From positions 1-57,747 of the IMG/VR virus record IMGVR_UViG_3300044646_000955: a stretch of 57,747 nucleotides of DNA; one strand, given 5' to 3'. A program made the position numbers and the translations under genes. Positions 1,894-41,220 of this stretch are shown in pieces. Each line of letters starts with the position of its first letter. Positions within the stretch are counted from its first letter, which is position 1. The notes under the pieces were generated by a model, which saw nothing but the letters and a program-made list of their open reading frames with translations, was not told where the DNA came from and ran no database searches. The stretch comes from a virus. Lineage: Duplodnaviria; Caudoviricetes.

Positions 1894-3549
1894 TCACTCG
1901 GCGGGAGGGATCTCGCAGCACCCGGTGACGCCATCCACGGCGAAGTTCACCGTTACCTCACGAGCCGCCGGGCCAAGCTGAGCGACGAGGTACAACTGCT
2001 CGGTCCATGCGGCCGTGTAGTCGTTCGTGGCGTTGAGCACGGAGTCGCGCACAATGCCGAGGTCGATCACGCCGCCGTCGCCGCGCACGTAGCCGCCCGC
2101 CGGGTAGAGCAGGAAGTCCATCGCGGTAGGCCACGTGGTTCGCGGGCCCACCCCGAAGAGCGGCTGGTAGTCGTGGACGAACTGCGGCCGGATCTTCCGG
2201 GTCGCGAAGTGAGCGTCAACCTGGGCATCCGTCACGTTAGTGATGTCGGCCCCCTCGCGCATGGCGAAGTCCGCCCGGAGCAGCGCCCGGGTCCACAACG
2301 GGAAGATCGCCTCAAGGATCGTGCCGACGCCCATGCGGTACTGCGACCGGTAGTCCTCCACCTGGAGGTCGATCGCGTTGAGGATCGAGCCGACTGCCGA
2401 CGTGGGGTAGGCGCCGATGGTCACGCCGGTGGCCGAGCCCGAGATGTCCGAGATGATGGCGCCCGACATCCGGTGGAGGTGGGCATTCATCGTCAGGTCC
2501 AGGAACCGGACGGTGAGTTCCGGGAAGGACCGGTCGGTGAGGTTGCCGTTGGTCACGCAGAGGCCCTCGGCCACGAGCCGGTAGTCCGTGAAGCTCGGGC
2601 AGGGGATGCGGAGGCAGGGCTTCGACCCCTCCGGGTTCTCCGGATCGTGAGCGGCGATGTCGTCCGCCTCGGTCCACGTCCAGAGAGCGCCGCTTGCGTC
2701 GTTGATCCCGAGGAAGTCGGGCACGTTCACGCCGCCACGAGTCACCTGAATGGTCGGGAGGTCGATGAGACCGTCGGCAGCATCGACGCCGAAGAGGGAG
2801 TAGATGTTGTTCGACGGAGCGCACCAGCCGCCAGCGGCGACGAGGTTGCCCTGATGCCTCACCCGCTCGATCACGTCGAGGTTGTGAGCCACCTCTGCGC
2901 CGACCTTGCGGTCCTCGGCGTAGGGGATCTCGAACCGGGCGATCGGCACTCGGGGCAGCCGGTCGCGAAGGGCTCGCGCCTTGTCGTGCATGGCTCGGAC
3001 CACGGTCATCTTGTCGATGCGCTGACCGGTCGCAACGCCCGGCACGTCCGCAGCGGCGATGATGGTCAGTTCCGGGGAGGCGGCCGGGACGGCGGGCGGC
3101 GGAGCGTAGGACCGGACACCGCGAGCGGAGGGGCGGCGGGGGGCGGTCGGGGCCGCGGCGGTAACCGCAACCGGCGGAGCGGTGGTCACGGCAACGGACT
3201 CCTCCTGAGCCGCAGCGACGGCGACGGGCTCCTCGGTGATGGGCTCTGCGGCGGCGACGGGCTCTTCCTCGGTCGCCGGGGTCTCTTCCTCGGCGGGCGC
3301 CGCCGTGGTGGCTGCGCGAATCCGCTCGGCCAGCAGGGCGACCTGCTCGGCGGCGAGAGCGGCGGCTTCCTCGCGCGTGGCGATCTCGCCCTGCACGGTC
3401 TCGACGGCCTCGGCGATCTCGGTCATGAGCACGATGTCGGTCGAGCCCTCGTCGTGGAGACGATCGAACTCGGCGATGAGGGATTCAAGGGTGGACGCCA
3501 GTTCCTCGTCGGGAAGGGCGGTCAAGTCCTGCGGCACGCTGGTTTCCAT
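1894..3549 (-). CDS. Major capsid protein (hexamer-type) with N-terminal scaffold-like coiled coil
   Basis: LVAAGGWCAPS..IY, IDLPTIQVTRGG, KPCLRIPCP motifs; AGGAGG RBS. Confidence 0.85.
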   Translation of the reverse strand: METSVPQDLTALPDEELASTLESLIAEFDRLHDEGSTDIVLMTEIAEAVETVQGEIATREEAAALAAEQVALLAERIRAATTAAPAEEETPATEEEPVAAAEPITEEPVAVAAAQEESVAVTTAPPVAVTAAAPTAPRRPSARGVRSYAPPPAVPAASPELTIIAAADVPGVATGQRIDKMTVVRAMHDKARALRDRLPRVPIARFEIPYAEDRKVGAEVAHNLDVIERVRHQGNLVAAGGWCAPSNNIYSLFGVDAADGLIDLPTIQVTRGGVNVPDFLGINDASGALWTWTEADDIAAHDPENPEGSKPCLRIPCPSFTDYRLVAEGLCVTNGNLTDRSFPELTVRFLDLTMNAHLHRMSGAIISDISGSATGVTIGAYPTSAVGSILNAIDLQVEDYRSQYRMGVGTILEAIFPLWTRALLRADFAMREGADITNVTDAQVDAHFATRKIRPQFVHDYQPLFGVGPRTTWPTAMDFLLYPAGGYVRGDGGVIDLGIVRDSVLNATNDYTAAWTEQLYLVAQLGPAAREVTVNFAVDGVTGCCEIPPAE

Positions 3550-4221: not shown

Positions 4222-4255
4222 GTCTCTAGTATACACGATCCCGGAACGGGGTCAA
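4222..4255 (-). promoter_or_regulatory. Class-1 cassette promoter
   Basis: TTGACC-CCGTTCCGGGATCGTG-TATACT-AGAGAC-ATG. Confidence 0.85.
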
Positions 4256-5638: not shown

Positions 5639-5668
5639 GAATCGGCCCGGGGCTCCCCGGGCCGATTC
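5639..5668. terminator. Hairpin between convergent genes
   Basis: GAATCGGCCCGGGG-CT-CCCCGGGCCGATTC. Confidence 0.7.
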
Positions 5669-5670
5669 TC

Positions 5671-7563
5671 TTATCGGGCGAGGGCGGCAGCCACGCGAGA
5701 GGCGAGAGCCGCCCGCCGTTGCGCGTGACTCCGGCCGATCGTCGCCGCGATCCGCTCAACGGCGCGACTCAGGCCCGGATCAGAAGCCGGGCCCGGAACG
5801 GCTACCTCCGCAGAGACGGAGCGCTCTACCGGCAGCGAGGCAACGACCGAGGCGACGAGCCCGTCGCGCATGCCGACTCGCAGCTTGCCGAACCCCGGGA
5901 CGTTGACGGCGAGCACGGCGACCAGTTCAAGGCTCGCACCGATCCGCCGCCAGTCGCCGCTAACGTCGGACGCCATGAGCGCCCGGATGCGCTCGGGGGC
6001 GACGTCCGGCCGAAGGGCTCCGGCGATCCAGATTCCGTGCTCGTCTTCTCCGGCGCGAACATCCACGACGGCGGCGCCCGTGTGGTCGTAGTGCGCCGCC
6101 GCGCTCGAAGCGGAGTCGGCGATGGGGGCGTGCCCGGTGTCCATCGTGACCTGACCGACCGCGACTCGACTGGAGTCGCTGCACACGAGTTCGCCCGTAT
6201 GGAAGTGGGCGTAGTTCGACGCGCTCGCGGGAGGGGTCACGCAGGTCTCGGAGAACCCGATGTGACAGGTCGTCCAGGTGGCGACGTGCCCGAAGACCCT
6301 TCCCTCGTCGGTGATCGTGATGGGGGTGGGGCCCGACAACTCCGGATTGCCGAACCAGTCGGAGGGCGGCAGGAGAGGCGCCTTGACCGGGTGGAGGGAG
6401 GCGACGATGGAGCCCTGCTCCCGTCGTGCCGTCATCTGGCGCTGGACCTTCTCCGCCCACGTCCGGCCGGGGTCGCCGCCCCAGAGGGCCCATGCGATCC
6501 GGCCCGCCGAGGGGAACCCGTCCTCGCCGGGGCTCCAGCCGACCCCTTGCTTGTCCACCTCGTGGCGCGCGAAGTACGACGCCATGCGGGTGATCGTGCT
6601 CGGCGAGAGGTTGCGCCCGTTGGCGATGTCGCGCGCTCGAGCGACGCCGACAGCGGTGCCGCCGCGTCCGTGCTCTTCGCGCCAGCGCAGGCCGCGCTCC
6701 GCCTCGGCCCTCGCCCCGGCGGGAGGGGAGAAGTCGATGTCATCGAGAGACCGGAACGTCCACACGATTCCGCCGGTCGCCTTGCGCTCGACGGCGAGGG
6801 CGGCAGCAACGACGGCGAGCCCCTCAATGTACGCCTCAGCGAAGGCGGGGAAGGGGACGACCGTAGCGCCCATCACCCGAGCGAACGTGACCTTGATCCG
6901 CTGGTAGTCCGCCGACATGCGGATAGACCCGTCCTCGTCAATCTCCGGGTCGGAGTCGTCCGCGTCGGGCCCGATGCCGTCGGCGGGGAGGATGATGTCG
7001 TAGAGCAGCATGTCAAGGTCCGCGCTGATGCCCCGTAGCGCGCCGTCTCGGATCAACTGCTGGAGGCGCAGCACCTCTTCGTCCTCAGATGCGACGAACG
7101 TCCCCCACGCGTGAATCTGTCGCCCCATGCGCTCGATGCGGGTAATGTTGCCCACAAGGATCGCGTCAGTGTGCCCGTCCGTCGTGCGGTCGGTAGCCAT
7201 GAGCGGGAGGGGCAGGGTCCGCCACGTGAGGGCTCCCTCCTCAATCCACCGCCCGTCGCCCGTCCAGATCCCTTCCACGATGACCAGCGCGTGGAAGTCC
7301 TCGGGGCCCATCGGCTCTACCCCGGGCGGCTCCTCAACCTCCGCAACGGGGAGGCCCGTGACGTCGTCGAGCCCATCGCCGTCCAGGTCGGCAAGCTGAG
7401 TGCCGGGGAGGGGATCTGGAAGCGACTCGTCCATCACGGTCATGCGGATCACGGTGGTGGCTCCTATCTGGCGTTCAAGGGCGGCGCAGTAGCCCTCCGG
7501 GCTCGCCTTGTCCTGATTGCTTGCCACGCAATCGGCGAAGTCTCGGTAGGGGCCAAGGGGCAC
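5671..7563 (-). CDS. Capsid maturation protease with an internal inserted domain
   Basis: EGIWTGDGR, LPLPLM, GISADLD, ATVVPFPAF, GRVFGHVATW.TCHIG, SGDWR motifs; position between MuF and capsid. Confidence 0.75.
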   Translation of the reverse strand: MPLGPYRDFADCVASNQDKASPEGYCAALERQIGATTVIRMTVMDESLPDPLPGTQLADLDGDGLDDVTGLPVAEVEEPPGVEPMGPEDFHALVIVEGIWTGDGRWIEEGALTWRTLPLPLMATDRTTDGHTDAILVGNITRIERMGRQIHAWGTFVASEDEEVLRLQQLIRDGALRGISADLDMLLYDIILPADGIGPDADDSDPEIDEDGSIRMSADYQRIKVTFARVMGATVVPFPAFAEAYIEGLAVVAAALAVERKATGGIVWTFRSLDDIDFSPPAGARAEAERGLRWREEHGRGGTAVGVARARDIANGRNLSPSTITRMASYFARHEVDKQGVGWSPGEDGFPSAGRIAWALWGGDPGRTWAEKVQRQMTARREQGSIVASLHPVKAPLLPPSDWFGNPELSGPTPITITDEGRVFGHVATWTTCHIGFSETCVTPPASASNYAHFHTGELVCSDSSRVAVGQVTMDTGHAPIADSASSAAAHYDHTGAAVVDVRAGEDEHGIWIAGALRPDVAPERIRALMASDVSGDWRRIGASLELVAVLAVNVPGFGKLRVGMRDGLVASVVASLPVERSVSAEVAVPGPASDPGLSRAVERIAATIGRSHAQRRAALASRVAAALAR

Positions 7564-7611
7564 GCCGGAACGCTAGCACCCTGCCTAAGTCCCTGCCGCA
7601 AAGTGGGAGGA

Positions 7612-7770
7612 GGTAAAGCCTAAGCGCTTAGGCTTCGCCTCTTTCCGTCTCTTGGGCCAGCCATGAGTGTGTCTGGCTCCCGGCGGCTTGTTCGTCATCC
7701 ATCTTGTTCTTCCTACCCTCGTTTCCCTCGTAGGTGTGGGGAGCATCTTCTCTGCGCTTCCCCTTGGGGT
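7612..7770 (-). ncRNA. Structured RNA or leader, copy 1 (may encode 24-aa peptide 7628..7702)
   Basis: Class-1 promoter with no ATG at +1; 71-nt block shared with 11749..11819; ends at hairpin 7615-7636. Confidence 0.55.
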
Positions 7771-7804
7771 GTCCTCAGTATACACGATCCCGGAACGGGG
7801 TCAA
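7771..7804 (-). promoter_or_regulatory. Class-1 promoter
   Basis: TTGACC-CCGTTCCGGGATCGTG-TATACT. Confidence 0.85.
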
Positions 7805-7858
7805 GCCGGAAAAGGAAGATTCTCTGAGATTCTTAGAGAATCTTCCGCCGGGGGCGAA

Positions 7859-8713
7859 CTAGGGCGACTCGGGGTCCTCGTCGGCCTCAAGGTCGGGCCC
7901 CGAGTCGGCAGCGGGGACGGTCGTTCCGTCCGGCAGCGTGTCGCCCGGGTAGTAGTAGAGCAGGTCGCAGCGGCAGTTGACGACGTTCCCCGCCGACCCG
8001 CTCGGGTCCATCGGGTAGAGGAGATCTTCCCCGTCCACGTTGAACGGCTCATCGAAGGGGACGACCGTCCCGGAGACGTCCAGGTGGGACTCGCGTGACC
8101 GAGCGTCACCGGCGGCAAGCCACTCCTTGTGCGTCGCCCCGTATTCCCCCAACGCCTGCTCTCCTCGGTAGGCGCCCCCGACGAAGGCGGCGTTTATCTC
8201 CGTGCGCGCGATGGTGTCGGCACGAAACTCGGAGAACCGGGTAAGGCGCTCCACCTCGCCCTTGAGATCTTCCGTGCCCATGCCCCGCTCAAGGGCACGG
8301 ACGACGCCAGCGTTGACGTTCGCCCACACGCCTTGCCCGACGCCGACTAGTCGGTTCTCGGCGCTCAAGGCGTAGTTCCTGGCGTTCTCGTTCGCTACGG
8401 CTAGCCAGTTCTGCGCGGCGGTCACGGGGGCCCTCGTCGCCGCGGGCGAGGAGTTCCACGCCGACACTGCGCCCACCCGGTTCATGCGCTCAAGGACGGG
8501 AGTGAGGTCGAGACGCACGGCGGCGCCCCATTCGATGGGGATCGAGTCAAGGGCGCTCAGGTCGCCGTCGGCCGTGAGGGTGGTGGTGAACCGCTCGTAG
8601 GCGCCGACAACCACGCGACGAAGCACGGCTCGGACGAGGCGAGCGAAGTCCTCCTCTGCATCGAGTCGCCAGCGTTGACGTTCGGCGAGGTCGCTAGGCG
8701 GATCGGAGAGCAT
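7859..8713 (-). CDS. MuF/SPP1 gp7-like minor head protein
   Basis: RADTIARTE, KEWLAAGDARSRESH, YPMDPSG...VNCRC. Confidence 0.9.
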   Translation of the reverse strand: MLSDPPSDLAERQRWRLDAEEDFARLVRAVLRRVVVGAYERFTTTLTADGDLSALDSIPIEWGAAVRLDLTPVLERMNRVGAVSAWNSSPAATRAPVTAAQNWLAVANENARNYALSAENRLVGVGQGVWANVNAGVVRALERGMGTEDLKGEVERLTRFSEFRADTIARTEINAAFVGGAYRGEQALGEYGATHKEWLAAGDARSRESHLDVSGTVVPFDEPFNVDGEDLLYPMDPSGSAGNVVNCRCDLLYYYPGDTLPDGTTVPAADSGPDLEADEDPESP

Positions 8714-10544
8714 CGGCTAGCCGGTCTGCGGAGTGAGGCTCCCCGATGGCGAGGATGGTGCGGGCGTAGCGGTCGAGCGACACGGCGAGACGTTCGGGGT
8801 CCGCGGAGCATCGCTCGGCGATGGCTGGCACCATCGACCAGGCTCCGTCAAGGAGGGAGTCAAGGGTGGCGTGCGCCGTTGCGCTGACCGAGCAGTGAAG
8901 GGTTAAGGGGTCGTCGCACGGGATCGACGCGGCCCCACCCGCGACGCGCTTGCCCGCTGCGGATCGGAGGCGGGCGTTGGCGCGCTCAAGGGTCCGGTGC
9001 ATGAGCACGTCACAGGCGGCAAGAAGAGCGGTCTCGTTGGGCCCTTGCTCGGATGGGGGCGCCGGTGGGCCGGGAGGGGCGGGAAGCTCGGGAGCGGGGG
9101 AAGGGGCGGGCTCTGCCGGGATCGGCTCTACCGGGGTCTCCGGCGGGCGCGCGAGCACGCCTAGCTCAATGAGGAGATCCGGGGCGAGGGCGGGCGCGGC
9201 GCGCAGGAGTTCGAGCAGGATCCGCTCGTTGCGCTCACTCGTGGTCGGCACGTCGTCCGCCGATAGGCCGATCTCGCGGAGCATGGCGGCGCGCGAGATC
9301 TCTAGGCGGTCGTACGCCTCGATGGCCTGCTTGGTCTTGTCGGGGCGAGAGGTAAGTTCGCTCGTGTCGTACCAGACCATCGCAGCGTCGGGGCTAAGGC
9401 CCTCGGCCCGCAACGCCGGAGCGAGGAACCCGATCGTGAGGGCGTGACAGACGGTCTCGGCGAGAGGCTCCACGTGGAGCGTGATCGCCTCCTCCTGTAC
9501 CTGCCAGGCGCCCCAATGGTTCATGCCGCCAACGCCTAGAAGGATCTCGGGCGGAATGTCCATGCCGAGGGCGAACCGCTTGATTGCCGCTTCGAGCAGG
9601 GAGAGCACTCGGTCGTCAAAGGGCGTTGCGAACGTGAGGTGGCGTACCTTGTCTACGAACTCGCCGGGGATGCGGATGACGAGGGGCACGACTGCTGCCG
9701 CCGATGACCGGTCGGCGATCGGTACGGTCATCGACTCCACGAGCGTGTCCACGAAGGAGTCCTCGGGCGCCGTGACGTTCTGGTTCTGCTCCAGCACGTC
9801 CTCGAATGACGACTGCGGTCCCTGTCCCGGGGGGAATACGGCCTCGCTGGGAATCGTGAGGATGCCCGCCCCGGCTAGTCGAGACTGAGCGCTCGCGTGG
9901 ACGTGCTGTTGAAGAAGCTCGATCTCACGCAGGACGGAGAGCACGCCACGAGTCGGCGCGTCCGGCTGATAACTCCAGCGCGGGTGCTTGCGCCAGACCT
10001 TGACGACGACGGCGAGTGGGTGGAGCTTCCGCCACTCCGACACTCCGACCCGGACCTCCACGGCTGCGTCACCGGGCACGCTACGGATCTCGTCCGACGA
10101 GTAGACGTTCCACGAGTCGTACTCGTCGCGCTCGCCGGGCTCCGCCACTAGCCACCCGATGCCCGCCACGGTGAGGTGCGTGCCGAAGGACGCCAGCATC
10201 TGGCCCTGCCCGATCGCGCCGTTGGCGATGCTCGCAACAACTTCAAGGGCTCGACGCTCGGCCGGGGTGCGCGCCGTCTCGGGCGTGAGGCGGCGCGGCT
10301 CCTCTCCGCCGGGGGATGGGGCGGCAGCGACCAGGTTGACGCGCGAAAGGGCGTTAGCAATCCACTGAGACGCGAACCGGAGTTCGCCGATGGAGTCGTA
10401 GTAGTCCCATGCCGCCGTCTGCCACGCTTGAGCGCGATGGGCGATCGCTCGCAAGGGCTGCGTCGGACTAGCCATCACTTCCGCAGCGGCGATCAGGCTG
10501 TTGTGCCGAGGGGGAATAGGCCCCCGATCTCGCCTACGCGCCAC
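8694..10544 (-). CDS. Portal protein
   Basis: WQTAAWDYYDSIGELRF, SRLAGAGIL, LGMDIPPEILLG..NHW motifs of actinophage portals. Confidence 0.85.
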   Translation of the reverse strand: MARRRDRGPIPPRHNSLIAAAEVMASPTQPLRAIAHRAQAWQTAAWDYYDSIGELRFASQWIANALSRVNLVAAAPSPGGEEPRRLTPETARTPAERRALEVVASIANGAIGQGQMLASFGTHLTVAGIGWLVAEPGERDEYDSWNVYSSDEIRSVPGDAAVEVRVGVSEWRKLHPLAVVVKVWRKHPRWSYQPDAPTRGVLSVLREIELLQQHVHASAQSRLAGAGILTIPSEAVFPPGQGPQSSFEDVLEQNQNVTAPEDSFVDTLVESMTVPIADRSSAAAVVPLVIRIPGEFVDKVRHLTFATPFDDRVLSLLEAAIKRFALGMDIPPEILLGVGGMNHWGAWQVQEEAITLHVEPLAETVCHALTIGFLAPALRAEGLSPDAAMVWYDTSELTSRPDKTKQAIEAYDRLEISRAAMLREIGLSADDVPTTSERNERILLELLRAAPALAPDLLIELGVLARPPETPVEPIPAEPAPSPAPELPAPPGPPAPPSEQGPNETALLAACDVLMHRTLERANARLRSAAGKRVAGGAASIPCDDPLTLHCSVSATAHATLDSLLDGAWSMVPAIAERCSADPERLAVSLDRYARTILAIGEPHSADRLADALRSA

Positions 10545-10622
10545 GTAGCCAAGGCTACATGATGCCAGCAAGCGGTCGCCCCGGAGTGGCCCTAGAACAC
10601 TCCGGGGCGACCCTGCCGACTC

Positions 10623-10943
10623 CTAGTAGCGGTAGTCGGTGACGCATACCGGGTCGTTCGTGAACCGAAGCGGACGCCCGCCCGGGAACCGGAAGGTGCC
10701 GTCCTTGCGAATCCGAAGGACTCTCTCGCGCACGTTGGCGCTTGCCGGGTAGGGGATCGCCTGGCGGTAGACCACCGGCCACGGGTTGCCACCCCTATTC
10801 TCGGTCCGGATCTCGGGCCCGTCTTGCATCGGCCGGAGCGTGACGGACTTCGCCGTCCGGCGGACGATCTCGTAGGCCACCTGGTCGGTGACCAACTTCT
10901 CGGTGGCGTAGTCGGTGGTCATGTGCGTGGCGTTCGTGCTCAT
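10623..10943 (-). CDS. Leaderless cassette protein, 106 aa
   Basis: MSTNATH...; ATG 6 nt after -10. Confidence 0.75.
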   Translation of the reverse strand: MSTNATHMTTDYATEKLVTDQVAYEIVRRTAKSVTLRPMQDGPEIRTENRGGNPWPVVYRQAIPYPASANVRERVLRIRKDGTFRFPGGRPLRFTNDPVCVTDYRY

Positions 10944-11048
10944 GTCGTCAGTATATACATGATCCCGGAACGACGTCAAGCCGGAGAGCGAAAGAACTTT
11001 TCTTGCTCCCCGTGTTGACGTTGTTCCGGGTTCATGTATACTAGGGAC
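10944..11048. promoter_or_regulatory. Back-to-back class-1 promoters (10944-10979 minus, 11015-11048 plus)
   Basis: Both match TTGACG-..GTTCCGGG.TCATG-TATA(TA)CT; A/T-rich tract between. Confidence 0.85.
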
Positions 11049-11273
11049 ATGACGCAGAGCACCACCACCCAGAAGAACCGGACCTTCAAGACCGCCAAGG
11101 GCACGGCTTGCACCGTGTGGAGCGTGAAGGTCGTCGCCCAGCGGGGGCCCTGGACCGGGCTCGCCGAGACGGTCCGCACGTTCGTCACGGCCGAGGGCCG
11201 GACCGGCGAGGTGGACGTGGAGCCCGGGTGCTCCTTCAAGGCGGAAGCCGCCGTGGCCGCCGCCGGATGGTGA
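11049..11273 (+). CDS. Leaderless cassette protein, 74 aa
   Basis: MTQSTTT... Confidence 0.75.
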   Translation: MTQSTTTQKNRTFKTAKGTACTVWSVKVVAQRGPWTGLAETVRTFVTAEGRTGEVDVEPGCSFKAEAAVAAAGW

Positions 11274-11305
11274 CCAGGAAACAACTCACAAAGGAGAACA
11301 CCACC

Positions 11306-11671
11306 ATGACTCACGACCTCGAATCCTTCCTCTCGGGGGCCATCTCGTCCCCGTGCAACGACATCAACTTCAGCCTTGAGCAGTTCCGCTTGGGGCTGGT
11401 CGGCTTCGGGGTGCCGGTGATGACCGCCGAGACCCTCGCCGGGCTCCTCGCCGACTACATCGGGGCGACGTTCGAGATCCAGCGGACCCTGCCGAGGCTG
11501 GCAACCGAGGTCGAGCGGCTCGGCGAGGCGCTCACCGACGGCGAGCCCTTGGTGGCTTCTTGGACCTGCACCCTCGCCGGTGCCGTCGCTCAGTTGGCCA
11601 CTCGACGGGAGGCCGCTAGCGATGCGTTCAACCGCCTCGCCTCGGTGGTGGTTGAGATGGCCAGCCGCTAG
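11306..11671 (+). CDS. Hypothetical protein, 121 aa
   Basis: AAGGAG RBS before ATG 11306. Confidence 0.7.
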   Translation: MTHDLESFLSGAISSPCNDINFSLEQFRLGLVGFGVPVMTAETLAGLLADYIGATFEIQRTLPRLATEVERLGEALTDGEPLVASWTCTLAGAVAQLATRREAASDAFNRLASVVVEMASR

Positions 11672-11714
11672 CCGAAGAATCTCCGAGATTCTCCGAAAAA
11701 GTTCTTCCCAGGGC

Positions 11715-11748
11715 TTGACGGCGTTCCGGGTTCATGTATACTAAGGAC
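11715..11748 (+). promoter_or_regulatory. Class-1 promoter
   Basis: TTGACG-GCGTTCCGGGTTCATG-TATACT. Confidence 0.85.
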
Positions 11749-11950
11749 ACGGCAAGGGGAAGCGCACCGAGGATGCTCCCCACACCTACGAGAGAGAGGA
11801 GGGTAGGAAGAACAAGATGAAGGAAGAACCGAACCGGACCCGTAAACCCGTGGTCCATAAACCCCGGCCCGATAGGCCACCGGGCGAGCAGTGCCCCAAC
11901 CAGCAATGGGGTAAGTGAGGGCCCCGCCGGGACGCCGGACGGGGCCTTCG
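11749..11950 (+). ncRNA. Structured RNA or leader, copy 2 (may encode 33-aa peptide 11817..11918)
   Basis: Homologous to 7770..7700; series of hairpins; terminal hairpin 11918-11948. Confidence 0.55.
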
Positions 11951-11954
11951 CCGT

Positions 11955-12149
11955 TTAGGCGTACCGCCGGCGGTACTCTCGCTCGGCTGCTCGGCACGCC
12001 TCGCACGGCGGCTCCTTGTGCCGCTGGTGGCGCCGATAGGCGGCGTGCGTGCCGCACGGCTGCGTCGGTGCCGGGCCCGGCGGAGCGCCGATCCTGGCAC
12101 CCCTGGCGGCCCTCCATCGGCGGTTGCGCTCGGCGCCGGTCATCGCCAT
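11955..12149 (-). CDS. Small basic Cys/His protein (CGT.AAY.RH....E.PC..C)
   Basis: TGATG-coupled start; paralogue at 33726..33956. Confidence 0.7.
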   Translation of the reverse strand: MAMTGAERNRRWRAARGARIGAPPGPAPTQPCGTHAAYRRHQRHKEPPCEACRAAEREYRRRYA

Positions 12150-12646
12150 CAGGCGTCGCAATCCGAGCAACCGAAGGGGATCCACCCATCGGGGATGGTC
12201 GCACGCTCGTCGGCACCGACCGCTCGTCCGCAGACGGTCCAGGCCGGGTCGGCCGGGTCGATGCCGCACGAGACCCACTCGGCGGCAGCCGAGTCGAAGC
12301 GGATCCAGGTCTGCGGCACCGTGACGTACCGGCCGCCGTCGGTCTGCGGGTCGGTCACTCGCACGCCGAGCTTGTCGGCGATGGCGTCGAGCAGGTGGTC
12401 TTGCAGGAGGCGGATGCGGAGGCGGACCTCCCGCCCGTCCTCGATGTCCTCGTCTTCAAGGTCGCTCGTGAGCACGTCGGCCTCGGTGATGTCCCGGCCG
12501 ACGGCGCCGGTGCAGTCGGCGCCGTCGAACCAGCCGAGCCCGAACGGCTCGTACGGAGCGCCGGAGATCATCGACCCGGCGGGGACGCTCGGCAGGTCGG
12601 CGAGGATGGAGGCGAGGAGGTCGGCCGGGATGGTGTCGGTGTTCAT
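12149..12646 (-). CDS. Acidic hypothetical protein with Cys pairs
   Basis: AGAAAGGA RBS. Confidence 0.7.
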   Translation of the reverse strand: MNTDTIPADLLASILADLPSVPAGSMISGAPYEPFGLGWFDGADCTGAVGRDITEADVLTSDLEDEDIEDGREVRLRIRLLQDHLLDAIADKLGVRVTDPQTDGGRYVTVPQTWIRFDSAAAEWVSCGIDPADPAWTVCGRAVGADERATIPDGWIPFGCSDCDA

Positions 12647-12674
12647 TGGTGTTCCTTTCTAGCTCGGCGGAGCG

Positions 12675-12797
12675 TTACCACTCGCCGTCGTCGTCCAGTT
12701 CGTCGGAGTCGAACCCGCACTCGCTGCAACCGTCCCATGCGAGCTTCTCGGCGCCGCAGCGGTCGCATTCAGTGTTCTTCGTGGTGTTCTCTCCCAT
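12675..12797 (-). CDS. Leaderless 40-aa zinc-ribbon-like acidic peptide
   Basis: MGENTTKNTECDRCGAEKLAWDGCSECGFDSDELDDDGEW. Confidence 0.7.
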   Translation of the reverse strand: MGENTTKNTECDRCGAEKLAWDGCSECGFDSDELDDDGEW

Positions 12798-12833
12798 GCG
12801 GATAACCTACCACAGTTGCCTAACGGACGTCAA
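12798..12833 (-). promoter_or_regulatory. Class-2 cassette promoter
   Basis: TTGACG-TCCGTTAGGCAACTGTGG-TAGGTT-6nt-ATG. Confidence 0.75.
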
Positions 12834-12887
12834 GCCGGGGAAGCAGGAATCCCGGAGTTTCCCCCGAGATTCCCCCGACTCTCGTCC

Positions 12888-13124
12888 TCACCCGTAGATC
12901 TCCTGCGAGATCCGGGCGAACTCCGCCTCTGCGGCATCCGCCTCGGCCCGGAGCTTGCGAGCCTTCGCCCGTCGGGCGAGGAGGGCTGCGGCGTCAACGG
13001 CCGGGTCGAGGGCGAGGGCCCGCAGGCCCCGCTCGGCATCGTCGGCCATGCCGACCGCCACGGATCGAGCCGTCAGGGCCCGGTCGTAGCGGTGCCGGTT
13101 GATTTGGTAGGTGTTTGCTGCCAT
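12888..13124 (-). CDS. Leaderless cassette protein, 78 aa
   Basis: Class-1 promoter at 13125-13158. Confidence 0.75.
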   Translation of the reverse strand: MAANTYQINRHRYDRALTARSVAVGMADDAERGLRALALDPAVDAAALLARRAKARKLRAEADAAEAEFARISQEIYG

Positions 13125-13194
13125 GCCCTTAGTATACACGTTCCCGGAACGGGGTCAAGTCGGAGAGGAAAGAATCTTTGCCGGGCACCCGGCG

Positions 13195-13407
13195 TCAACG
13201 ACCCTTCGCTGCGGCCACGGCCTCGGCGGCGCAATCGAGCGCCCAGGCGATGGTCTCGAACCCGGCGTAGGCGGCGCAGGCGCCCGCCCACTCGCGACGG
13301 TCGGCGTCGGTCTCCGCCGCCTTGAACATCTCGGCGGCGTGGCGCATCGCTGCGAGTCCGGCGACAACGTGGGCGGGGTAGTTGGTGGTGTTGGTGTTCT
13401 GTGCCAT
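13195..13407 (-). CDS. Leaderless cassette protein, 70 aa (MAQNTNTT...)
   Basis: Class-2 promoter at 13408-13443 (TTGACA-GGCGTTAGGCGACCGTGA-TACGGT). Confidence 0.75.
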   Translation of the reverse strand: MAQNTNTTNYPAHVVAGLAAMRHAAEMFKAAETDADRREWAGACAAYAGFETIAWALDCAAEAVAAAKGR

Positions 13408-13531
13408 GTCCCTACCGTATCACGGTCGCCTAACGCCTGTCAACCGGAAAAAGCAAGAATCCCGGGCCGAAGCCCGGGACCTTGTCAGGCAGCCCGCCAC
13501 CGGCGGTTCCGCTCGGCGTTGCTCATCGCCA

Positions 13532-13837
13532 TTAGGCGGGCACCGTGATCGTGACGTCTTGGTCGTTGTATTCGACCTCAACACCGGCGATGAGCTGGCG
13601 CAGCGCCGACAGACTGTCGGTGATGACGATTCGGTGCCACGCCTGCACCGACTCGTACAATTCATCGGCGAGAGCTGCGAGAGCCCATCCGGCGTGTTCG
13701 AACGTCGGCGCGTCCGGCCCGAGCGCGCCCGAGTCGCACTCGTGGTCGCCGTCCATGAGGAACCACTCAAGACCCGGGAACCCGCTGCTCGACTGGATGA
13801 TGAGCGTGCGCTTGATGTCGTTGGTGTTCTGTGCCAT
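13532..13837 (-). CDS. Leaderless acidic cassette protein, 101 aa (MAQNTND...)
   Basis: Class-2 promoter at 13838-13873 (TTGACG-TCCGTTAGGCGATCGTGA-TACGTT). Confidence 0.75.
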   Translation of the reverse strand: MAQNTNDIKRTLIIQSSSGFPGLEWFLMDGDHECDSGALGPDAPTFEHAGWALAALADELYESVQAWHRIVITDSLSALRQLIAGVEVEYNDQDVTITVPA

Positions 13838-13883
13838 GCGGATAACGTATCACGATCGCCTAACGGACGTCAAGCCCTTGCGC

Positions 13884-14297
13884 TCAGATTGCGAGCGCCT
13901 GCCAATCCTTGACGGCGGCGACCTTGTTGATCGCCCGCCATGCGTCGATGACGGTCGCCAGGGTGGCATCGTCAAGCCTCGCCCGGTCGTTCATGTCCCG
14001 GCAGAACTTCGGCGTGATCCGACCAGGCTTGCACGCCAGGAGGAAGCTCCACGCATTCCGAACCCCGATGCGGTCGAAGATTGCGAGAAGCTCAGTCGCT
14101 GCGATGCGCGCCTCGATGACCGCCCGGTCGTAGCCGAGCAGCTTCGCGGCGCAGCCGGTGCCGTACGTCTGCACGCCCTCGGGCCCGTTGAGCCAGACCG
14201 GCCGCTCGAGCTCCTCGTGTCCGCAGCAGGCGCAGGAGAAGGCGTAGAACTCGGCGAAGCGGGGCTTCGGAGCGATGGTGTAGGTGGTCGTGCTCAT
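13884..14297 (-). CDS. Leaderless cassette protein with CxCCG...YGTGCA putative Zn site
   Basis: Class-1 variant promoter at 14298-14333. Confidence 0.75.
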   Translation of the reverse strand: MSTTTYTIAPKPRFAEFYAFSCACCGHEELERPVWLNGPEGVQTYGTGCAAKLLGYDRAVIEARIAATELLAIFDRIGVRNAWSFLLACKPGRITPKFCRDMNDRARLDDATLATVIDAWRAINKVAAVKDWQALAI

Positions 14298-14394
14298 GTC
14301 GTCAGTATATACAGGTTACCGGAACGTCGTCAACCCTAAAACGCAAGAATCCCGGGCGCTGGGCCCGGGACCTTGATCGGGACCGCCGAACCGC

Positions 14395-14703
14395 TCAGCG
14401 GTTGAGTTCGTCAAACTCATCCCGAGCGGCATTGCACACCGCTGCGAACTGCTCGCACCGGAACTCCAGCACCGAGGCGGCGAAGCGCCGCTCGGCGGCG
14501 GCCTGCTCCCGCTTGCCGAGCCAGTGGTTGAGGTCCTCGTCGGACCAGAGGTTGACTTCCTTCGCCACGAGGGCGTGGATGTCGGCCTGGCGCTTGATCG
14601 CCAGGTCGAGGCCCGCCTGGGCCTCCTGCTTGGCGGCGAACGCCGCATCGCATGCCGCCAGGGCGGCGTCGATGGAGTGGAACTTCTTGGTGGTGTTTGC
14701 CAT
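14395..14703 (-). CDS. Leaderless cassette protein, 102 aa
   Basis: Class-2 promoter at 14704-14739. Confidence 0.75.
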   Translation of the reverse strand: MANTTKKFHSIDAALAACDAAFAAKQEAQAGLDLAIKRQADIHALVAKEVNLWSDEDLNHWLGKREQAAAERRFAASVLEFRCEQFAAVCNAARDEFDELNR

Positions 14704-14818
14704 GTCCGTACGGTACCACGGTTCCCTAACGGGCGTCAAGCCGGAGAGGCGGAAAATTCCTAGAAACTTTTCCTGCTCCCCGTGTTGACGCTGTTCCGGG
14801 TTCATGTATACTAGGGAC
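14704..14818. promoter_or_regulatory. Back-to-back promoters (class 2 minus, class 1 plus at 14785)
   Basis: Near-duplicate of the 10975-11050 intergenic region. Confidence 0.8.
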
Positions 14819-15118
14819 ATGAGCACGACGATCAAACACATCGACACCTTCAACGCCCTCATCCCGGCCAACTGGGAACTCGGGATTCGCGACCGGCGCT
14901 ACTCCGCCGAGCGAGTCACCTTCAAGATCGGGGCGTACCACGCGACGGCATGGGTGGACGTGCGGATGACCGCAGACGACCTCTACGCCGTGGAGATCTA
15001 CAAGGTCCGCAGCGGGAAGCGGACGATCCTCGTGACGATCGACGGCGTGTACGCCGATCGGCTCGCTTCGGCGCTCATCGATGCGTGGTGCGCGATCTGC
15101 GACGCGAAGGGATGGTGA
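14819..15118 (+). CDS. Leaderless cassette protein, 99 aa
   Basis: MSTTIKH... Confidence 0.75.
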   Translation: MSTTIKHIDTFNALIPANWELGIRDRRYSAERVTFKIGAYHATAWVDVRMTADDLYAVEIYKVRSGKRTILVTIDGVYADRLASALIDAWCAICDAKGW

Positions 15119-15428: not shown

Positions 15429-15530
15429 GGGCTAGGCGCCCGTCGCCCCACGGCCCCCGCTCGCAGGGAAGGGGTCGTGGGGAGGTCGCGCCACGAGCGT
15501 CTAACCCGGGAGGGCGCGTGCGACCTTACG

Positions 15531-27081: not shown

Positions 27082-27141
27082 AGCTTGCCTTCCCTTCGTT
27101 GGTGTTCTTGCTGCGCCCCCCCATAATACACGATTCCGGAA

Positions 27142-27186
27142 CACTGTCAAGCCCCCGGGAGGGCGTCTCCCGGGGGCTTGACAGTG
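27142..27186. terminator. Perfect 20-bp inverted repeat
   Basis: CACTGTCAAGCCCCCGGGAG-GGCGT-CTCCCGGGGGCTTGACAGTG. Confidence 0.75.
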
Positions 27187-30281: not shown

Positions 30282-30724
30282 CGCCGGGCCCGCTTCGCGC
30301 GATACATGGCAGCATCTGCCTGGCGCACGGCGTCGTCAGCCTCGCCGATCCCGAGTCCGACCGATGCCCGCACGCCCCACCGGCCGTCGAGCGCTGCGGC
30401 GAGGCGGTGCGCGGCGTCGGTGGCGTCGGCCGTGTCGGCGAGGAGGACAAGGATCTCGTCGCCGCCCCATCGGCTCACGAGGTCATCGGCGCGCACGGTC
30501 GCCCGGATCACTTCGGCGGCGAGCAGGAGCACGGCGTCACCGGCGGCGTGCCCTAGCGTGTCGTTGATCGCCTTGAGCCCGTCAAGGTCGGCGAGGATGA
30601 CGGCGCACGTTCCGGCGGAGCGGCGCCGCTCGAGCAGGATCTCGCCGACCGGCCGGACGTGCAGCCGGGTCGTCGGACAGGTCGTGAGCCGATGCAGGTC
30701 GGCAGGTGACAGGTCGAGGGTCAT
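30278..30724 (-). CDS. Stand-alone GGDEF (diguanylate cyclase-like) protein
   Basis: DLDGLKAINDTLGHAAGD, RWGGDEI, ASVG, ADAAMYRAK. Confidence 0.9.
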   Translation of the reverse strand: MTLDLSPADLHRLTTCPTTRLHVRPVGEILLERRRSAGTCAVILADLDGLKAINDTLGHAAGDAVLLLAAEVIRATVRADDLVSRWGGDEILVLLADTADATDAAHRLAAALDGRWGVRASVGLGIGEADDAVRQADAAMYRAKRARR

Positions 30725-31284
30725 CGGATCACCTCGGTCATGTCGGCCCCGGTGAGGTTGGCCCCGATGAGGTTGGCCCCGGTGAGGTTGGCCTCGATCA
30801 GGTCGGCGCCGGTGAGGTTGGCGCCGGTGAGGTTGGCGCCGGTGAGGTCGGCGCCGGTGAGGTTGGCCTTGGTGAGGTCGGCGCCGGTGAGGTCGGCGCC
30901 GGTGAGGTTGGCCCCGGTGAGGTTTGCCTCGGTGAGGTTTGCCCCGGTGAGGTCGGCCTCGATCAGGTTGGCCCTGGTGAGGTCGGCCTCGGCGAGCTTG
31001 GCCCCGGTGAGGTCGGCCCAGTTCATGTCGGCCCCGGTGAGGTCGGCGCCGGTGAGGCGGACGTCACGAAGGTCGGCGTCACAAAGGTCGGCGTCGAAGA
31101 GATTGGCCCTGGTGAGGTTGGCACCGATCAGCTTGGCCCCGGTGAGGTTGGCGCCGACGAGGTCGGCGTGCGTCAGGTCGGCGCCGCGCAGGTCGGCGCC
31201 TCGCAGGTCAGCGCGCTTGCCCGTCCCCGGGACGGCGAGCCAGCGAGCGTGCTCGGCGAGGATATTCGGCAGGTCGAGGGTCAT
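30721..31284 (-). CDS. Pentapeptide repeat protein
   Basis: A(D/N)LxG repeats. Confidence 0.9.
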
Positions 31285-31754
31285 CGGATCACCTCGTTCA
31301 TGTCGGGCCCGGTGAGGTTGGCCCCGGTCATGTCGGCCCCGGTGAGCTTGGCGCCACGAAGGTCGGCGTCGAAGAGATCGGCCCCGGTCAGGTCGGCGCC
31401 GATCAGGTTGGCCTCGGTCAGATCGGCCCCGGTGAGGTCGGCCCCGATCAGCTTGGCCCCGGTCAGGTCGGCCCCGGTCAGGTCGGCGCCGGTGAGGTAG
31501 GCCCCGGTGAGATCGGCGCCGATCAGATTGGCCCTGCTGAGGTTGGCCCCGATCAGGTTGGCGCCGATCAGGTTGGCGCCGATCAGGTTGGCCTCGGTCA
31601 GATCGGCCTCGGTCAGATCGGCCCTGGTGAGCTTGGCTGCGACGAGGTCGGCGTGCGTCAGGTCGGCGCCGCGCAGGTCGGCTCGCTTGCCCGTCCCCGG
31701 ATCGGTGAGCCACTGAGCGTGCTCGGCCAGGATGGTCGGCAGGTTGATAGTCAT
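31281..31754 (-). CDS. Pentapeptide repeat protein
   Basis: A(D/N)LxG repeats. Confidence 0.9.
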
Positions 31755-32239
31755 CGGATCACCTCGGTCATGTCGGCCCCGGCGAGCTTGGCCCCGATCA
31801 GGTTGGCCCTGGTGAGCTTCGCGCCGGTGAGGTCGGCCCCGATCAGGTTGGCACCGCTCAAGTTGGCCTCGGTGAGGTTGGCCCCGATCAGGTTGGCCCC
31901 GATCAGGTTGGCCCAATTCAGGCGGGCGCCACGAAGGTCGGCCCTGGTGAGCTTGGCGCCGGTGAGGTTGGCGCCGATCAAGTTGGCCCCGATCAGGTTG
32001 GCCCCGATCAGGTTGGCCCCGATCAGGTTGGCCCCGCTGAGGTTGACCCAATTCAGGCGGGCGCCACGAAGGTCGGCCCTGGTGAGGTCGGCGCCGGTGA
32101 GGTTGGCGTCACGAAGGTCGGCGTCGGTGAGGTTGGCCCCGATCAGGTTGGCGCCGCGCAGGTCGGCGCGCCGGCCGGTCGCCGTATCGGCGAGCCACTG
32201 AGCGTGCTCGGCCAGGATGGTCGGCAGGTCGATGGTCAT
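31751..32239 (-). CDS. Pentapeptide repeat protein
   Basis: A(D/N)LxG repeats; GAAAGG RBS. Confidence 0.9.
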
Positions 32240-32291
32240 GTGTGTGCCTTTCGTGGTGTTGTGGCATCTTATCGGCCGCATGAACAGGAAG

Positions 32292-32546
32292 TCAAGCCGG
32301 GCGAGCGGCGTCGATGACCGGAGCCATCGAGAACTTCCCGAGCGGGAAGGCGATCTCGCGAGGACCGTTGAAGTCGCTGACAGTGATGCCCACGAGCCGC
32401 GATTCGCCGGTAAGGACGTCCCGGATCAACATCCTCTTAGCCGTACGAGCGACGACCACGAAGCTCCACCGGTAATCACCCCGGCCGGTGTCGTAGGTGG
32501 TTCCGACCTTGAAGGTGGCGGTGATGGCGGCGGTGTTCGTGCTCAT
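32292..32546 (-). CDS. Leaderless cassette protein, 84 aa
   Basis: Class-1 promoter at 32547-32580. Confidence 0.75.
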   Translation of the reverse strand: MSTNTAAITATFKVGTTYDTGRGDYRWSFVVVARTAKRMLIRDVLTGESRLVGITVSDFNGPREIAFPLGKFSMAPVIDAARPA

Positions 32547-32613
32547 GTCCTTAGTATACATGATCCCGGAACAGTGTCAAGCGAGAGCAGAACTTTTCTC
32601 GGAAGGTCGAAGA

Positions 32614-32973
32614 TCAGATCGCACCCGTTACCCCGGTTACGGTAGCCATGTTGACGTTGGCTCCCCTTGAGTCGATGCCGGTTAGATCTGCGTCCCGCAG
32701 GTCGGCCCATCCGAGGTTGGCCCACCGCAGATTCGCCCCCGTTAGGTCCGCCCCGTTGAGATAAGCGCCCCGCAGGTCTGCATCGGCGAGGTTCGCCCCG
32801 GCCAGGTTGGCCCCGATGAGCTTGGCACTGATCAGATTGGCCAGCTTGAGGTTGGCCCCTCGGAGATCGGCCCCGCTCAAGTCGGCATTGCTCAAGTCGG
32901 CCCGCTTGCCCGTTGCCGGATTGGCGAGCCAGCGAGCGTGCTCCGCAAGGATGGTCGGCAGGTCGATCGTCAT
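32614..32973 (-). CDS. Pentapeptide repeat protein
   Basis: A(D/N)LxG repeats. Confidence 0.9.
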   Translation of the reverse strand: MTIDLPTILAEHARWLANPATGKRADLSNADLSGADLRGANLKLANLISAKLIGANLAGANLADADLRGAYLNGADLTGANLRWANLGWADLRDADLTGIDSRGANVNMATVTGVTGAI

Positions 32974-33254
32974 CGGATCACCCCGGTCATGTCGGCCCCG
33001 GCAAGGTCGGCGCCGGTGAGGCGGGCGCCGCATAGCTGGGCGCGCCGGAGGTCGGCGCCACGAAGGTCGGCGTCACGGAGGTCGGCGTCGAAGAGGATAG
33101 CGTCACGAAGGCGAGCGCCACGAAGATCGGCGCCTCGCAGGTCGGCGCCTCGCAGGTCGGCGCGCTTGCCGGTCGTGGGATCGGCGAGCCAGCGAGCGTG
33201 CCCGGCGAGAATGATTGAGAGGTCGTTGGCGGCGGTGTTGATCGTCGTGCTCAT
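32970..33254 (-). CDS. Pentapeptide repeat protein (leaderless)
   Basis: Class-1 promoter at 33255-33290; ADLRG repeats. Confidence 0.85.
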   Translation of the reverse strand: MSTTINTAANDLSIILAGHARWLADPTTGKRADLRGADLRGADLRGARLRDAILFDADLRDADLRGADLRRAQLCGARLTGADLAGADMTGVIR

Positions 33255-40981: not shown

Positions 40982-41051
40982 GAGGCGATCCTAGCCTTCG
41001 AGGGTCGTCTCGGGCCTCCCGAAGAAACTTCTAGAAAGTTCTTGCTGGGGC

Positions 41052-41085
41052 TTGACGTCGTGCCGGGATCGTGTATACTAACCAC
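41052..41085 (+). promoter_or_regulatory. Class-1 promoter, antisense to tail operon
   Basis: TTGACG-TCGTGCCGGGATCGTG-TATACT. Confidence 0.85.
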
Positions 41086-41207
41086 CAGAAGCGGTACCAT
41101 GCTCAGGTCGAGCCCCTAGTGCAAAAGACACTCTAGGGTTGCCGCGGTGGGTGAGAAGCCCACGAAAGAACCGAGGGGACCGGCACCGACGGGTGCCGGT
41201 CCCCTTT
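41086..41207 (+). ncRNA. Candidate ~120-nt structured RNA
   Basis: No ATG at +1; only a 6-codon ORF inside; multiple stems; terminator 41173-41207. Confidence 0.55.
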
Positions 41208-41220
41208 GGCGTTGGGGCCT

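Follow-up and report, generated by a model that had tools for sequence, protein, structure and literature searches.

What does a tailed phage gain from placing the same 71-nt sequence between a strong promoter and a start codon at two sites in its genome, each time ahead of a very short and unrelated open reading frame (ORF)? We addressed this question in the IMG/VR virus record IMGVR_UViG_3300044646_000955 (Duplodnaviria; Caudoviricetes), whose 57,747 bases, analysed at full length and called the window below, have a G+C content of 66% and are rated complete by CheckV. A first-pass annotation had pointed to two copies of a promoter-driven structured RNA element, one on the minus strand at 7700..7770 (copy A) and one on the plus strand at 11749..11819 (copy B); we find both, with 63 of 71 positions identical in an ungapped alignment from the putative transcription start (+1) to the ATG. 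The repeat is real and non-random, and the element is very probably transcribed from the +1 of two strong promoters. Several readings of its role compete, among which we tentatively favour a cis-acting 5′ leader, an expression module that would act at the RNA level by stabilising its transcript and gating translation of the short ORF behind it.

Two class-1 promoters open onto a conserved leader

The window contains 19 near-identical sites of a 31-nt promoter (class 1; TTGAC-N17-TATACT), against none expected by chance, and in these sites the 17-nt spacer is conserved as well, around a GTTCCGGG core (for example at 4228, 11012, 14782, 32553, 35061 and 50561). At 14 of the 19 an ATG follows 6 nt after the −10 hexamer (7 nt in one); because of this spacing, we infer that the genes behind these promoters are read from leaderless mRNAs, with transcription starting on the A of that ATG. 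The remaining five have no ATG at that spot, and they include the promoters of both 71-nt copies, as the first-pass annotation had recognized; two others, at 27123(−) and 28393(−), lead through short leaders with an ordinary ribosome-binding site (RBS) into real genes, and the last, at 41049(+), introduces a further structured RNA described below. The promoter of unit A (the transcription unit that carries copy A) lies at 7777..7807 on the minus strand (−35 TTGACC, 7804-7799; −10 TATACT, 7782-7777), preceded by an A+T-rich AGATTCT/AGAATCT stretch at ~7808-7850, and that of unit B at 11712..11742 on the plus strand (−35 TTGACG, 11715-11720; −10 TATACT, 11737-11742), preceded by AGAATCTCCGAGATTCT at 11676-11692. 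The base at the putative +1 is A in both copies (7770; 11749). The class-1 pattern itself has no match in IMG/VR viral contigs; the closest relative of the phage, locus L003, uses a related leaderless promoter style that is similar but not the same.

Other repeated features accompany these promoters. Many of the 14 presumed leaderless mRNAs start ATGAGCACGAAC (MSTN...), and a motif GAACA(CC) turns up repeatedly in two settings, behind the ATG of leaderless genes and, in leadered genes, between the Shine–Dalgarno sequence (SD) and the ATG; together with the recurring spacer core, it may reflect a site for a phage-specific regulator in the spacer, a translation enhancer, or both. A second promoter-like class (repeat family D13) reads TTGAC ... 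CGTTAGGC ..., followed by a leaderless ATG. At 27142-27186 lies a perfect hairpin with a 20-bp stem, one arm of which contains the −35 box of the class-1 promoter 27123-27153(−), and which may be an overlapping terminator and promoter or a promoter-occluding site.

Similarity between the two loci extends upstream of the element: the longest inverted repeat of the record pairs 7690-7855 with 11664-11829 (166 nt, 80%), taking in the promoters and the A+T-rich stretches before them. A 19-nt piece of this pair occurs exactly twice, against 0 expected (100 shuffles), and a covariance model run on the window returned only copies A and B, at 104 and 103 bits, with the next match at 12.9 bits. The 21 nt that precede the ATG are fully identical, 7 of the 10 bases that follow it match, and beyond these identity is at background, so that the homology, which the first-pass annotation had ended exactly at the ATG, is gone within 10 nt but not cut off to the base. 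So sharp a drop is in keeping with a module bounded by the start codon.

A predicted two-hairpin fold whose stems the differences avoid

Both copies are predicted by ViennaRNA to fold alike, into two hairpins that each form with a pairing probability above 0.9. Hairpin 1 occupies leader positions 8-33 (7763-7738 in copy A, 11756-11781 in copy B) and consists of a GGGGA/UCCCC stem, a bulged A, an inner GCG/UGC stem and a 9-nt loop (~−10 kcal/mol); hairpin 2, at positions 37-59 (7734-7712; 11785-11807), closes a 13-nt loop with CCUAC/GUAGG (−4.5 to −5.1 kcal/mol). Two of the stems proposed in the first-pass annotation, GGGGA/TCCCC and CCTAC/GTAGG, are thus recovered, while its GCA/TGC register gives way to GCG/UGC set off by the one-base bulge. 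The final AAGAACAAG-AUG stretch is predicted to be single-stranded up to and including the start codon (ATG at 7702-7700 in A and 11817-11819 in B). The SD, which had been described as buried in the second stem, is therefore only half so in the predicted fold: G55-G59 are paired and A60 through the AUG are free.

The eight differences between the copies (leader positions 3, 4, 19, 20, 23, 45, 48 and 50) all fall in the 5′ tail or in the apical loops of the two predicted hairpins, and the stems, the linker and the final 21 nt are invariant; alignment and predicted fold together bear out what the first-pass annotation had noticed. In a statistic that is post hoc and draws on two sequences only, random placement of eight differences would put all of them among the 29 of 71 tail and loop positions with a chance of 0.0004, and none in a paired base with a chance of 0.02; with adjacent changes merged into six events, these chances become 0.003 and 0.06. 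Such a placement suggests, short of proof, that stems, linker and RBS are under selection. The transcribed strand is also 69–70% purine, within the top 0.3% of the record's 71-nt windows, and contains several SD-like runs, a bias that argues for a strand-specific role at the RNA level.

A phage-type ribosome-binding site and two short ORFs

The last 15 nt of the element (AGGAAGAACAAGATG) fit a style of RBS, AGGA[AG]..A[AC]CA..ATG/GTG, that recurs in this genome. The pattern marks ten distinct start sites: four gene starts that we took, by judgement, as bona fide (11306, 28357, 12646 and 7452), the two short ORFs, and four others (29522, 29113, 3537 and one duplicate form). Predicted SD:anti-SD duplexes amount to −8.4 kcal/mol for copy A and −12.2 kcal/mol for copy B, compared with −8.3 to −10.2 kcal/mol for real SD-led genes, on a scale on which 20% of random positions reach −8.

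Behind the ATGs lie the 24-aa and 33-aa ORFs that had been reported there. ORF A (7628..7702, minus strand) has 24 codons, MDDEQAAGSQTHSWLAQETERGEA, followed by a TAA stop (7630-7628) that completes the 5′ arm of the hairpin ending the unit; ORF B (11817..11918, plus strand) has 33 codons, MKEEPNRTRKPVVHKPRPDRPPGEQCPNQQWGK, and terminates at a TGA (11916-11918) that is likewise part of a 5′ arm, that of its own terminal hairpin. Neither is called as a gene in the protein collection, and neither the coding-type codon usage nor the homologues that would mark a small protein-coding gene were found for them.

Two apparently self-contained units

The terminal hairpin of unit A (7615..7636, minus strand) has a 9-bp stem with a GCGC loop, followed by UUU that lies partly within the stem, and is the first hairpin after the portal–MuF operon. 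It is one of 20 perfect hairpins in the record with a stem of at least 8 bp, several others of which stand at gene ends (for example 5639-5668, after the minor capsid gene g630). That of unit B (11915..11951, plus strand) has a 16-bp bulged stem followed by UUCGCCGUUU. Terminators that lack a long U tract are common in high-G+C actinobacteria. The two structures, called terminator-like in the first-pass annotation, are real hairpins, but they have only about three U behind them and no long U tract, and a consensus terminator scan, which needs five T in eight, lists none in 7000-12500.

Both units start 40–50 nt past the stop codon of the last gene of an operon, portal–MuF for unit A and g74–g121 for unit B, and since no hairpin lies between that gene and the unit in either case, each terminal hairpin is shared with the operon upstream. 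Bounded in this way, the units look self-contained, at ~155 nt (A) and ~205 nt (B). The hairpin of unit B faces the end of a convergent minus-strand operon: behind it come a WhiB-like ORF ending at 11955 and then six more minus-strand genes up to 14871, leaving no same-strand gene for ~2.8 kb.

The WhiB-like ORF (11955-12149, minus strand; 64 aa) overlaps the stop of the gene upstream of it (TGATG) and corresponds to the C-terminal part of WhiB-like regulators (PHROG E 3.5e-9). Contig depth at 11957-12100 is 100- to 400-fold higher in two lake runs, probably because related genes are numerous among abundant actinobacteria or the phages that infect them. Four of the small genes in the block facing unit B are preceded by D13 promoter-like repeats (12772-12833, 13382-13443, 13812-13873 and 14678-14739, all minus strand).

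On the other side, unit A points towards g630, which encodes a 630-aa minor capsid protein (5671-7563, minus strand) and has a candidate start of its own at 7561..7575, where TGC-TAGCGT is followed after 6 nt by a GTG at 7563. The first 34 residues of g630 are 57–68% identical over 33–35 aa in six loci and 49% identical over 47 aa in L017. In seven of the eight relatives that we read (loci L009, L011, L014, L017-L019, L022 and L023) an ATG lies 6–7 nt after a −10-like hexamer, usually just past a hairpin; the start codon is ATG in all eight and GTG here. Probably, then, g630 keeps its own leaderless start, and unit A therefore need not be its leader. A strong internal RBS with a GTG at 7452 makes two start sites, and two isoforms of the protein, possible.

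A third putative promoter-driven small RNA and the search for relatives

The fifth class-1 promoter with no ATG at the expected spot (41049-41079, plus strand) drives a predicted structured RNA of ~125 nt (41084-41212; z −5.4), here called unit C. Three hairpins are followed by a perfect 14-bp terminator stem at 41174-41205 and then TTTGG, and the whole lies antisense, between two minus-strand tail genes. Unit C is unrelated to the 71-nt leader; Rfam returned nothing for it at E up to 10, and an exact search of IMG/VR for its terminator was likewise empty.

Relatives of the 71-nt element were sought widely. A search of Rfam 15, as the first-pass annotation had proposed, matched no family, c-di-GMP, preQ1, guanidine-II and 6C among those covered: the full window gave nothing at gathering scores, and at E up to 10 nothing overlapped either copy (7400-12200). 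Four exact-block or gapped patterns failed to find the element in IMG/VR viral contigs, as did a gapped pattern in GTDB genomes (one genome per species); among GenBank phages there were only matches of E 2–8. The single match of a 21-mer in JGI metagenome contigs lies within a glycoside-hydrolase-like coding region and is taken as chance. No leader was found by blastn-short in 38 viral loci related through the portal, and a covariance model (R1) reached a best E of 0.18 on 41 loci (these 38 and three genome loci). The same model gave no match on two genomes reached through the loci and, on 151 genomes of one actinobacterial class, three matches at 23–25 bits, all of them inside coding sequence and regarded as noise. 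The closest relative, whose portal is 69% identical, carries no leader in the 6.9 kb of it that we examined. As far as its sequence tells, the element belongs to no Rfam family and is a conserved 5′ leader or small-RNA domain without known relatives.

A cis-acting leader weighed against other readings

Starting from what the sequence shows (a repeat that begins at the +1 of consensus promoters, differences confined to tail and loops, an RBS of phage type, and hairpins), we tentatively propose that the conserved 71 nt are a cis-acting leader module, in which transcription, stabilisation, gating and translation would proceed along one short message. Each unit would comprise, in order, a class-1 promoter, a 68-nt untranslated leader, a start codon, a 24- or 33-codon ORF and a terminal hairpin. 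A stem-loop beginning 8 nt from the 5′ end, set in a purine-rich, SD-like tract, would protect the transcript from 5′-end-dependent decay, while the weak hairpin 2, by holding the 5′ half of the SD (GUAGG), would let temperature, a protein or an RNA gate initiation. The ORFs would be interchangeable payloads, selection acting on the module and on the translation of a short ORF into the terminal hairpin. Because unit B has nothing to read into, the output common to both units would have to be the small transcript itself.

A number of results weigh against such a module, beside the post hoc nature of the placement statistic. The folds are not unusually stable relative to shuffled sequences (z −1.6 and −1.4; 12 and 18 of 200 shuffles as stable or better), hairpin 2 is small, with 5 bp under a 13-nt loop, and the stems are invariant between the two copies with no compensatory change, which is neutral as to pairing. 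None of the collections searched yielded a homologue, the comparison being confined to the two copies, and of the 20 runs listed as carrying the phage sequence none is an RNA run. The peptides of ORFs A and B are unrelated to each other, as the first-pass annotation had said; no relative of ORF B turned up among 1.84 billion representative proteins, and neither peptide has a Pfam or PHROG match. A codon-usage score trained on 16 long genes and checked on 16 held-out small phage genes comes to 0.07–0.09 per codon for ORF A and −0.12 to −0.13 for ORF B, against 0.60–1.01 for 15 of the 16 held-out genes; windows of real small genes of equal length score that low in 5% (A) and 0.2% (B) of cases, and of 253 genome-wide ATG ORFs of 20–40 codons, 34% and 49% score as high as the two. 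The test is not absolute, because the Arg-rich 64-aa WhiB-like ORF, a real gene, scores only 0.10.

These same observations lend themselves to another account, possible though in our estimate less probable than the leader module, in which the units are two paralogous non-coding small RNAs (sRNAs) whose conserved 5′ domain, a protein-binding scaffold or a seed, does the work, while the 3′ parts vary and the ORFs would be fortuitous. The codon usage of both ORFs at the level of random ATG ORFs and their lack of database relatives accord with it, and ORFs of 24–33 codons are expected by chance at 66% G+C, by an estimate from base composition. Unit C, as a third structured small RNA with a class-1 promoter and a terminator, would indicate that the phage makes non-coding RNAs in this way; units A and B are both bounded by promoter and hairpin, and their placement behind an operon's last gene, each under a promoter of its own while sharing the operon's terminator, is that of sRNAs embedded in 3′ ends. 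Such an RNA would have no need, however, of a conserved block that ends in a phage-type RBS and an ATG, and no target came to light: neither unit has extended complementarity to the phage genome, their duplex energies with 24 phage 5′ regions are no better than those of shuffles (18–91% of which reach the best observed energy), and neither pairs with unit C. The first-pass annotation had offered the choice between a leader for micropeptides and an sRNA with a constant scaffold, and these stay the best two readings, not decisively separated by the present evidence. Its more specific suggestions fared less well. A riboswitch finds no support, given that no Rfam family answers even at E up to 10 and that the hairpins are short; in the predicted fold, the overlap of hairpin 2 with the SD could serve as an expression platform. 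A CsrA sponge is not supported either: the loops of copy A hold a single GGA and those of copy B two, with a further one at the SD, where known sponges carry many more, and CsrA is not known to occur in Actinomycetota, to which the host probably belongs.

Both units might instead modify transcription itself. An antiterminator resembling the put RNA of phage HK022 would alter RNA polymerase so that it reads through the terminal hairpin, from unit A into g630 and from unit B antisense across the convergent operon. Two 71-nt copies, each with two predicted hairpins, start at the +1 of divergent promoters with a hairpin 135–165 nt downstream, and the internal RBS of g630 at 7452 would serve a leadered read-through transcript; yet every gene from 11955 to 14871 is on the minus strand, so that polymerase leaving unit B would meet no gene in its own orientation there, g630 seems to be served by a leaderless start of its own, and conservation does not stop at hairpin 2 but takes in a further 12 nt, with an RBS and an ATG for which put would have no use. 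With 13 predicted pairs, the element also falls short of the 21 Watson–Crick and 5 non-canonical pairs described for put (PMC9378689), and we consider this reading unlikely. Rather less likely still are translation-coupled attenuators, in which a ribosome finishing the short ORF would cover the 5′ arm of the hairpin and block termination, so that the leader would set read-through by way of translation. That the stops lie inside the 5′ arms (7630-7628 within 7636-7628; 11916-11918 within 11915-11930) and that the SD is half sequestered would suit such a device, but behind unit B there is again no gene to reach, the feet of hairpins, being richer in A+T, are places where stops are to be expected anyway, and the device presupposes coupling of transcription and translation in the host.

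Nor need the leader have a function of its own. It could be left from a recent duplication of a promoter cassette, or be homogenised by recombination among the 19 promoter repeats, or it could consist of DNA sites for a regulator. The near-identity of the 19 promoters even in their spacers implies that these repeats either are homogenised or have spread in the manner of cassettes; both stems are inverted repeats in DNA as well, and neither shows a compensatory change. A passive cassette would not, on the other hand, lead one to expect eight differences that avoid stems, linker and RBS, or a sharp 3′ edge of homology at the start codon; a DNA operator would not be expected to have so strong a purine bias on one strand, and the inner segment of stem 1 depends on a G-U pair. 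We regard these origins, too, as improbable. Least credible of all is the thought, also raised in the first-pass annotation, that an overlapping conserved frame encodes a 15-aa peptide, MLPTPTRE(T/R)RVGRTR, whose translation in copy B would be coupled by an ATGA overlap with the ORF that follows. The frame holds three of the differences, two of them synonymous third-position changes, an outcome with a chance of ~0.26, and the stop in copy B overlaps the next ATG; but the codon scores are −1.3 (B) and −0.4 (A), a level not reached by any of 20,000 windows drawn from real small genes, the ATG (7746; 11773) and the sole SD-like run lie inside stem 1, and in copy A the frame continues for 53 codons through the terminal hairpin, so that the product is not conserved. 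The frame appears to be carried along by conservation of the nucleotides.

Genome, host and sampling

The phage encodes a tailed-phage gene set that includes the portal (8694-10571), a MuF-like head protein (7859-8713) and the major head protein (1894-3549), all on the minus strand, with terminase, tape measure, tail proteins, an Erf-like recombinase and an endolysin also encoded; no tRNA or tRNA-like genes were found in the 57.7-kb window. At the DNA level the portal has relatives in phages of Microbacterium, Gordonia, Streptomyces and Mycobacterium, protein-level relatives occur in contigs of Actinomycetota genomes, and there is the C-terminal WhiB-like ORF, on which grounds we infer that the host is an actinobacterium. 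Long arrays of a 15-nt tandem unit (30620-33225; 62 register copies, 60–80% identity) lie within minus-strand coding sequence, which suggests a pentapeptide-repeat protein.

Lake-water and freshwater DNA runs from 18 studies carry the phage sequence. Contigs from four lake-water DNA runs, compared over 7400-12100, show no variant inside either leader where they cover it, the cover being patchy and low. In three of these four runs contigs join 10990 to 11711, bypassing the g74–g121 genes and linking two promoter repeats with sides of 32 nt; the joint most probably arose in assembly through the promoter repeat, a natural deletion variant that lacks these two genes being a less likely source.

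Comparison with known systems

The importance of the element is potential rather than demonstrated, as befits an orphan known from two sequences, and it differs with the reading adopted. In a phage most of whose genes appear to be leaderless, two tiny units with an elaborate, SD-bearing leader bear on the balance of leadered and leaderless translation in infected actinobacteria. If the leader is a stabiliser and translation module, it would be a compact expression part for high-G+C hosts; if it acts in trans on RNA polymerase or ribosomes, it would represent a new class of phage RNA.

sRNAs with a shared 5′ domain (OmrA and OmrB, and the dual-function SgrS and RNAIII) and sRNAs embedded in 3′ ends are familiar from Proteobacteria and Firmicutes. 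They resemble units A and B in combining a conserved 5′ part and a divergent remainder with a small ORF, an own promoter and a shared terminator; the difference is that OmrA/OmrB, SgrS and RNAIII are proteobacterial and firmicute examples, whereas the present units are known from sequence alone.

For a stabilising leader, too, there are models. The leader of Bacillus phage SP82 and the cryIIIA STAB-SD reportedly act as mRNA stabilisers. Polypurine or STAB-SD sequences and 5′ stem-loops of this kind resemble our units in that SD-like, purine-rich sequence and a stem-loop stand close to the 5′ end of the transcript, just before the start codon; here the stem-loop begins at nucleotide 8, and the likeness is one of sequence. 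Stabilisation of Bacillus mRNAs by 5′ polypurine sequences or by 5′-terminal stem-loops is described in PMC2358910, as is the case of mycobacterial katG, in which a polypurine sequence 4 bp before the start has a stabilising effect on the mRNA that depends on at least 20 codons being translated (PMC2358910). katG is actinobacterial, as our units appear to be, and its requirement for at least 20 translated codons compares with ORFs of 24 and 33 codons here. The stabilisers of SP82, cryIIIA and katG are, by contrast, short motifs of single genes, whereas the present element is a 71-nt block, 89% alike in two units with unrelated ORFs.

According to PMC9378689, phage HK022 has its two put copies behind its two early promoters, putL following its promoter closely; the copies are similar in sequence, measure ~70 nt and form two stem-loops apiece. 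The same anatomy, two ~70-nt copies with two stem-loops close to a promoter, is found here, with stem-loops that are predicted and at z −1.4 to −1.6; putL and putR and our element, compared by description only, are also alike in lying just after divergent promoters and ahead of terminators. They differ in that put has many more pairs and a triplex, binds the β′ zinc-binding domain of RNA polymerase and works with Escherichia coli RNA polymerase on long early operons, whereas one of the present copies has no downstream gene. An actinophage counterpart, improbable as we hold it to be, would be a protein-independent, two-hairpin nascent RNA that reprograms the host polymerase, in unit A towards the capsid gene and in unit B antisense into the operon of WhiB-like and other small genes. 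On an equal footing with it stands a variant acting in trans, in which an abundant, SD-rich decoy RNA would shift host ribosomes towards the mostly leaderless mRNAs of the phage.

Among actinophages, the closest parallel in position is offered by the start-associated sequences (SAS) of Cluster K mycobacteriophages, a 13-bp consensus GGGATAGGAGCCC with an SD core that lies 3–7 bp before an ATG in 11–19 copies per genome (PMC3203893, PMC12699233). In these accounts SAS and the associated ESAS repeats stand before unrelated genes, with inverted repeats upstream in some cases, their function is given as still unproven, and the ESAS repeats are judged by their authors more likely to be DNA sites (PMC3203893; PMC12699233). 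Like them, the present element is a repeated, conserved and asymmetric actinophage sequence with an SD core a few bases before the ATG of unrelated genes; unlike them, it is 71 nt long rather than 13 bp, occurs in two copies rather than 11–19 and extends from the +1 of a promoter. The consensus GGGATAGGAGCCC, with up to two mismatches, matches the window twice (98-110 and 15429-15441; 2.15 expected), in neither case at the leaders, and by its sequence the element thus sits in the same place as SAS and ESAS but is not a member. Repeats close to the start codons of actinophage genes remain unexplained after 15 years, and this phage presents a cleaner case, one in which the start of the transcript is defined by 19 near-identical promoters, only two of these carry a long structured leader, and the units that they drive are ~155–205 nt in length.

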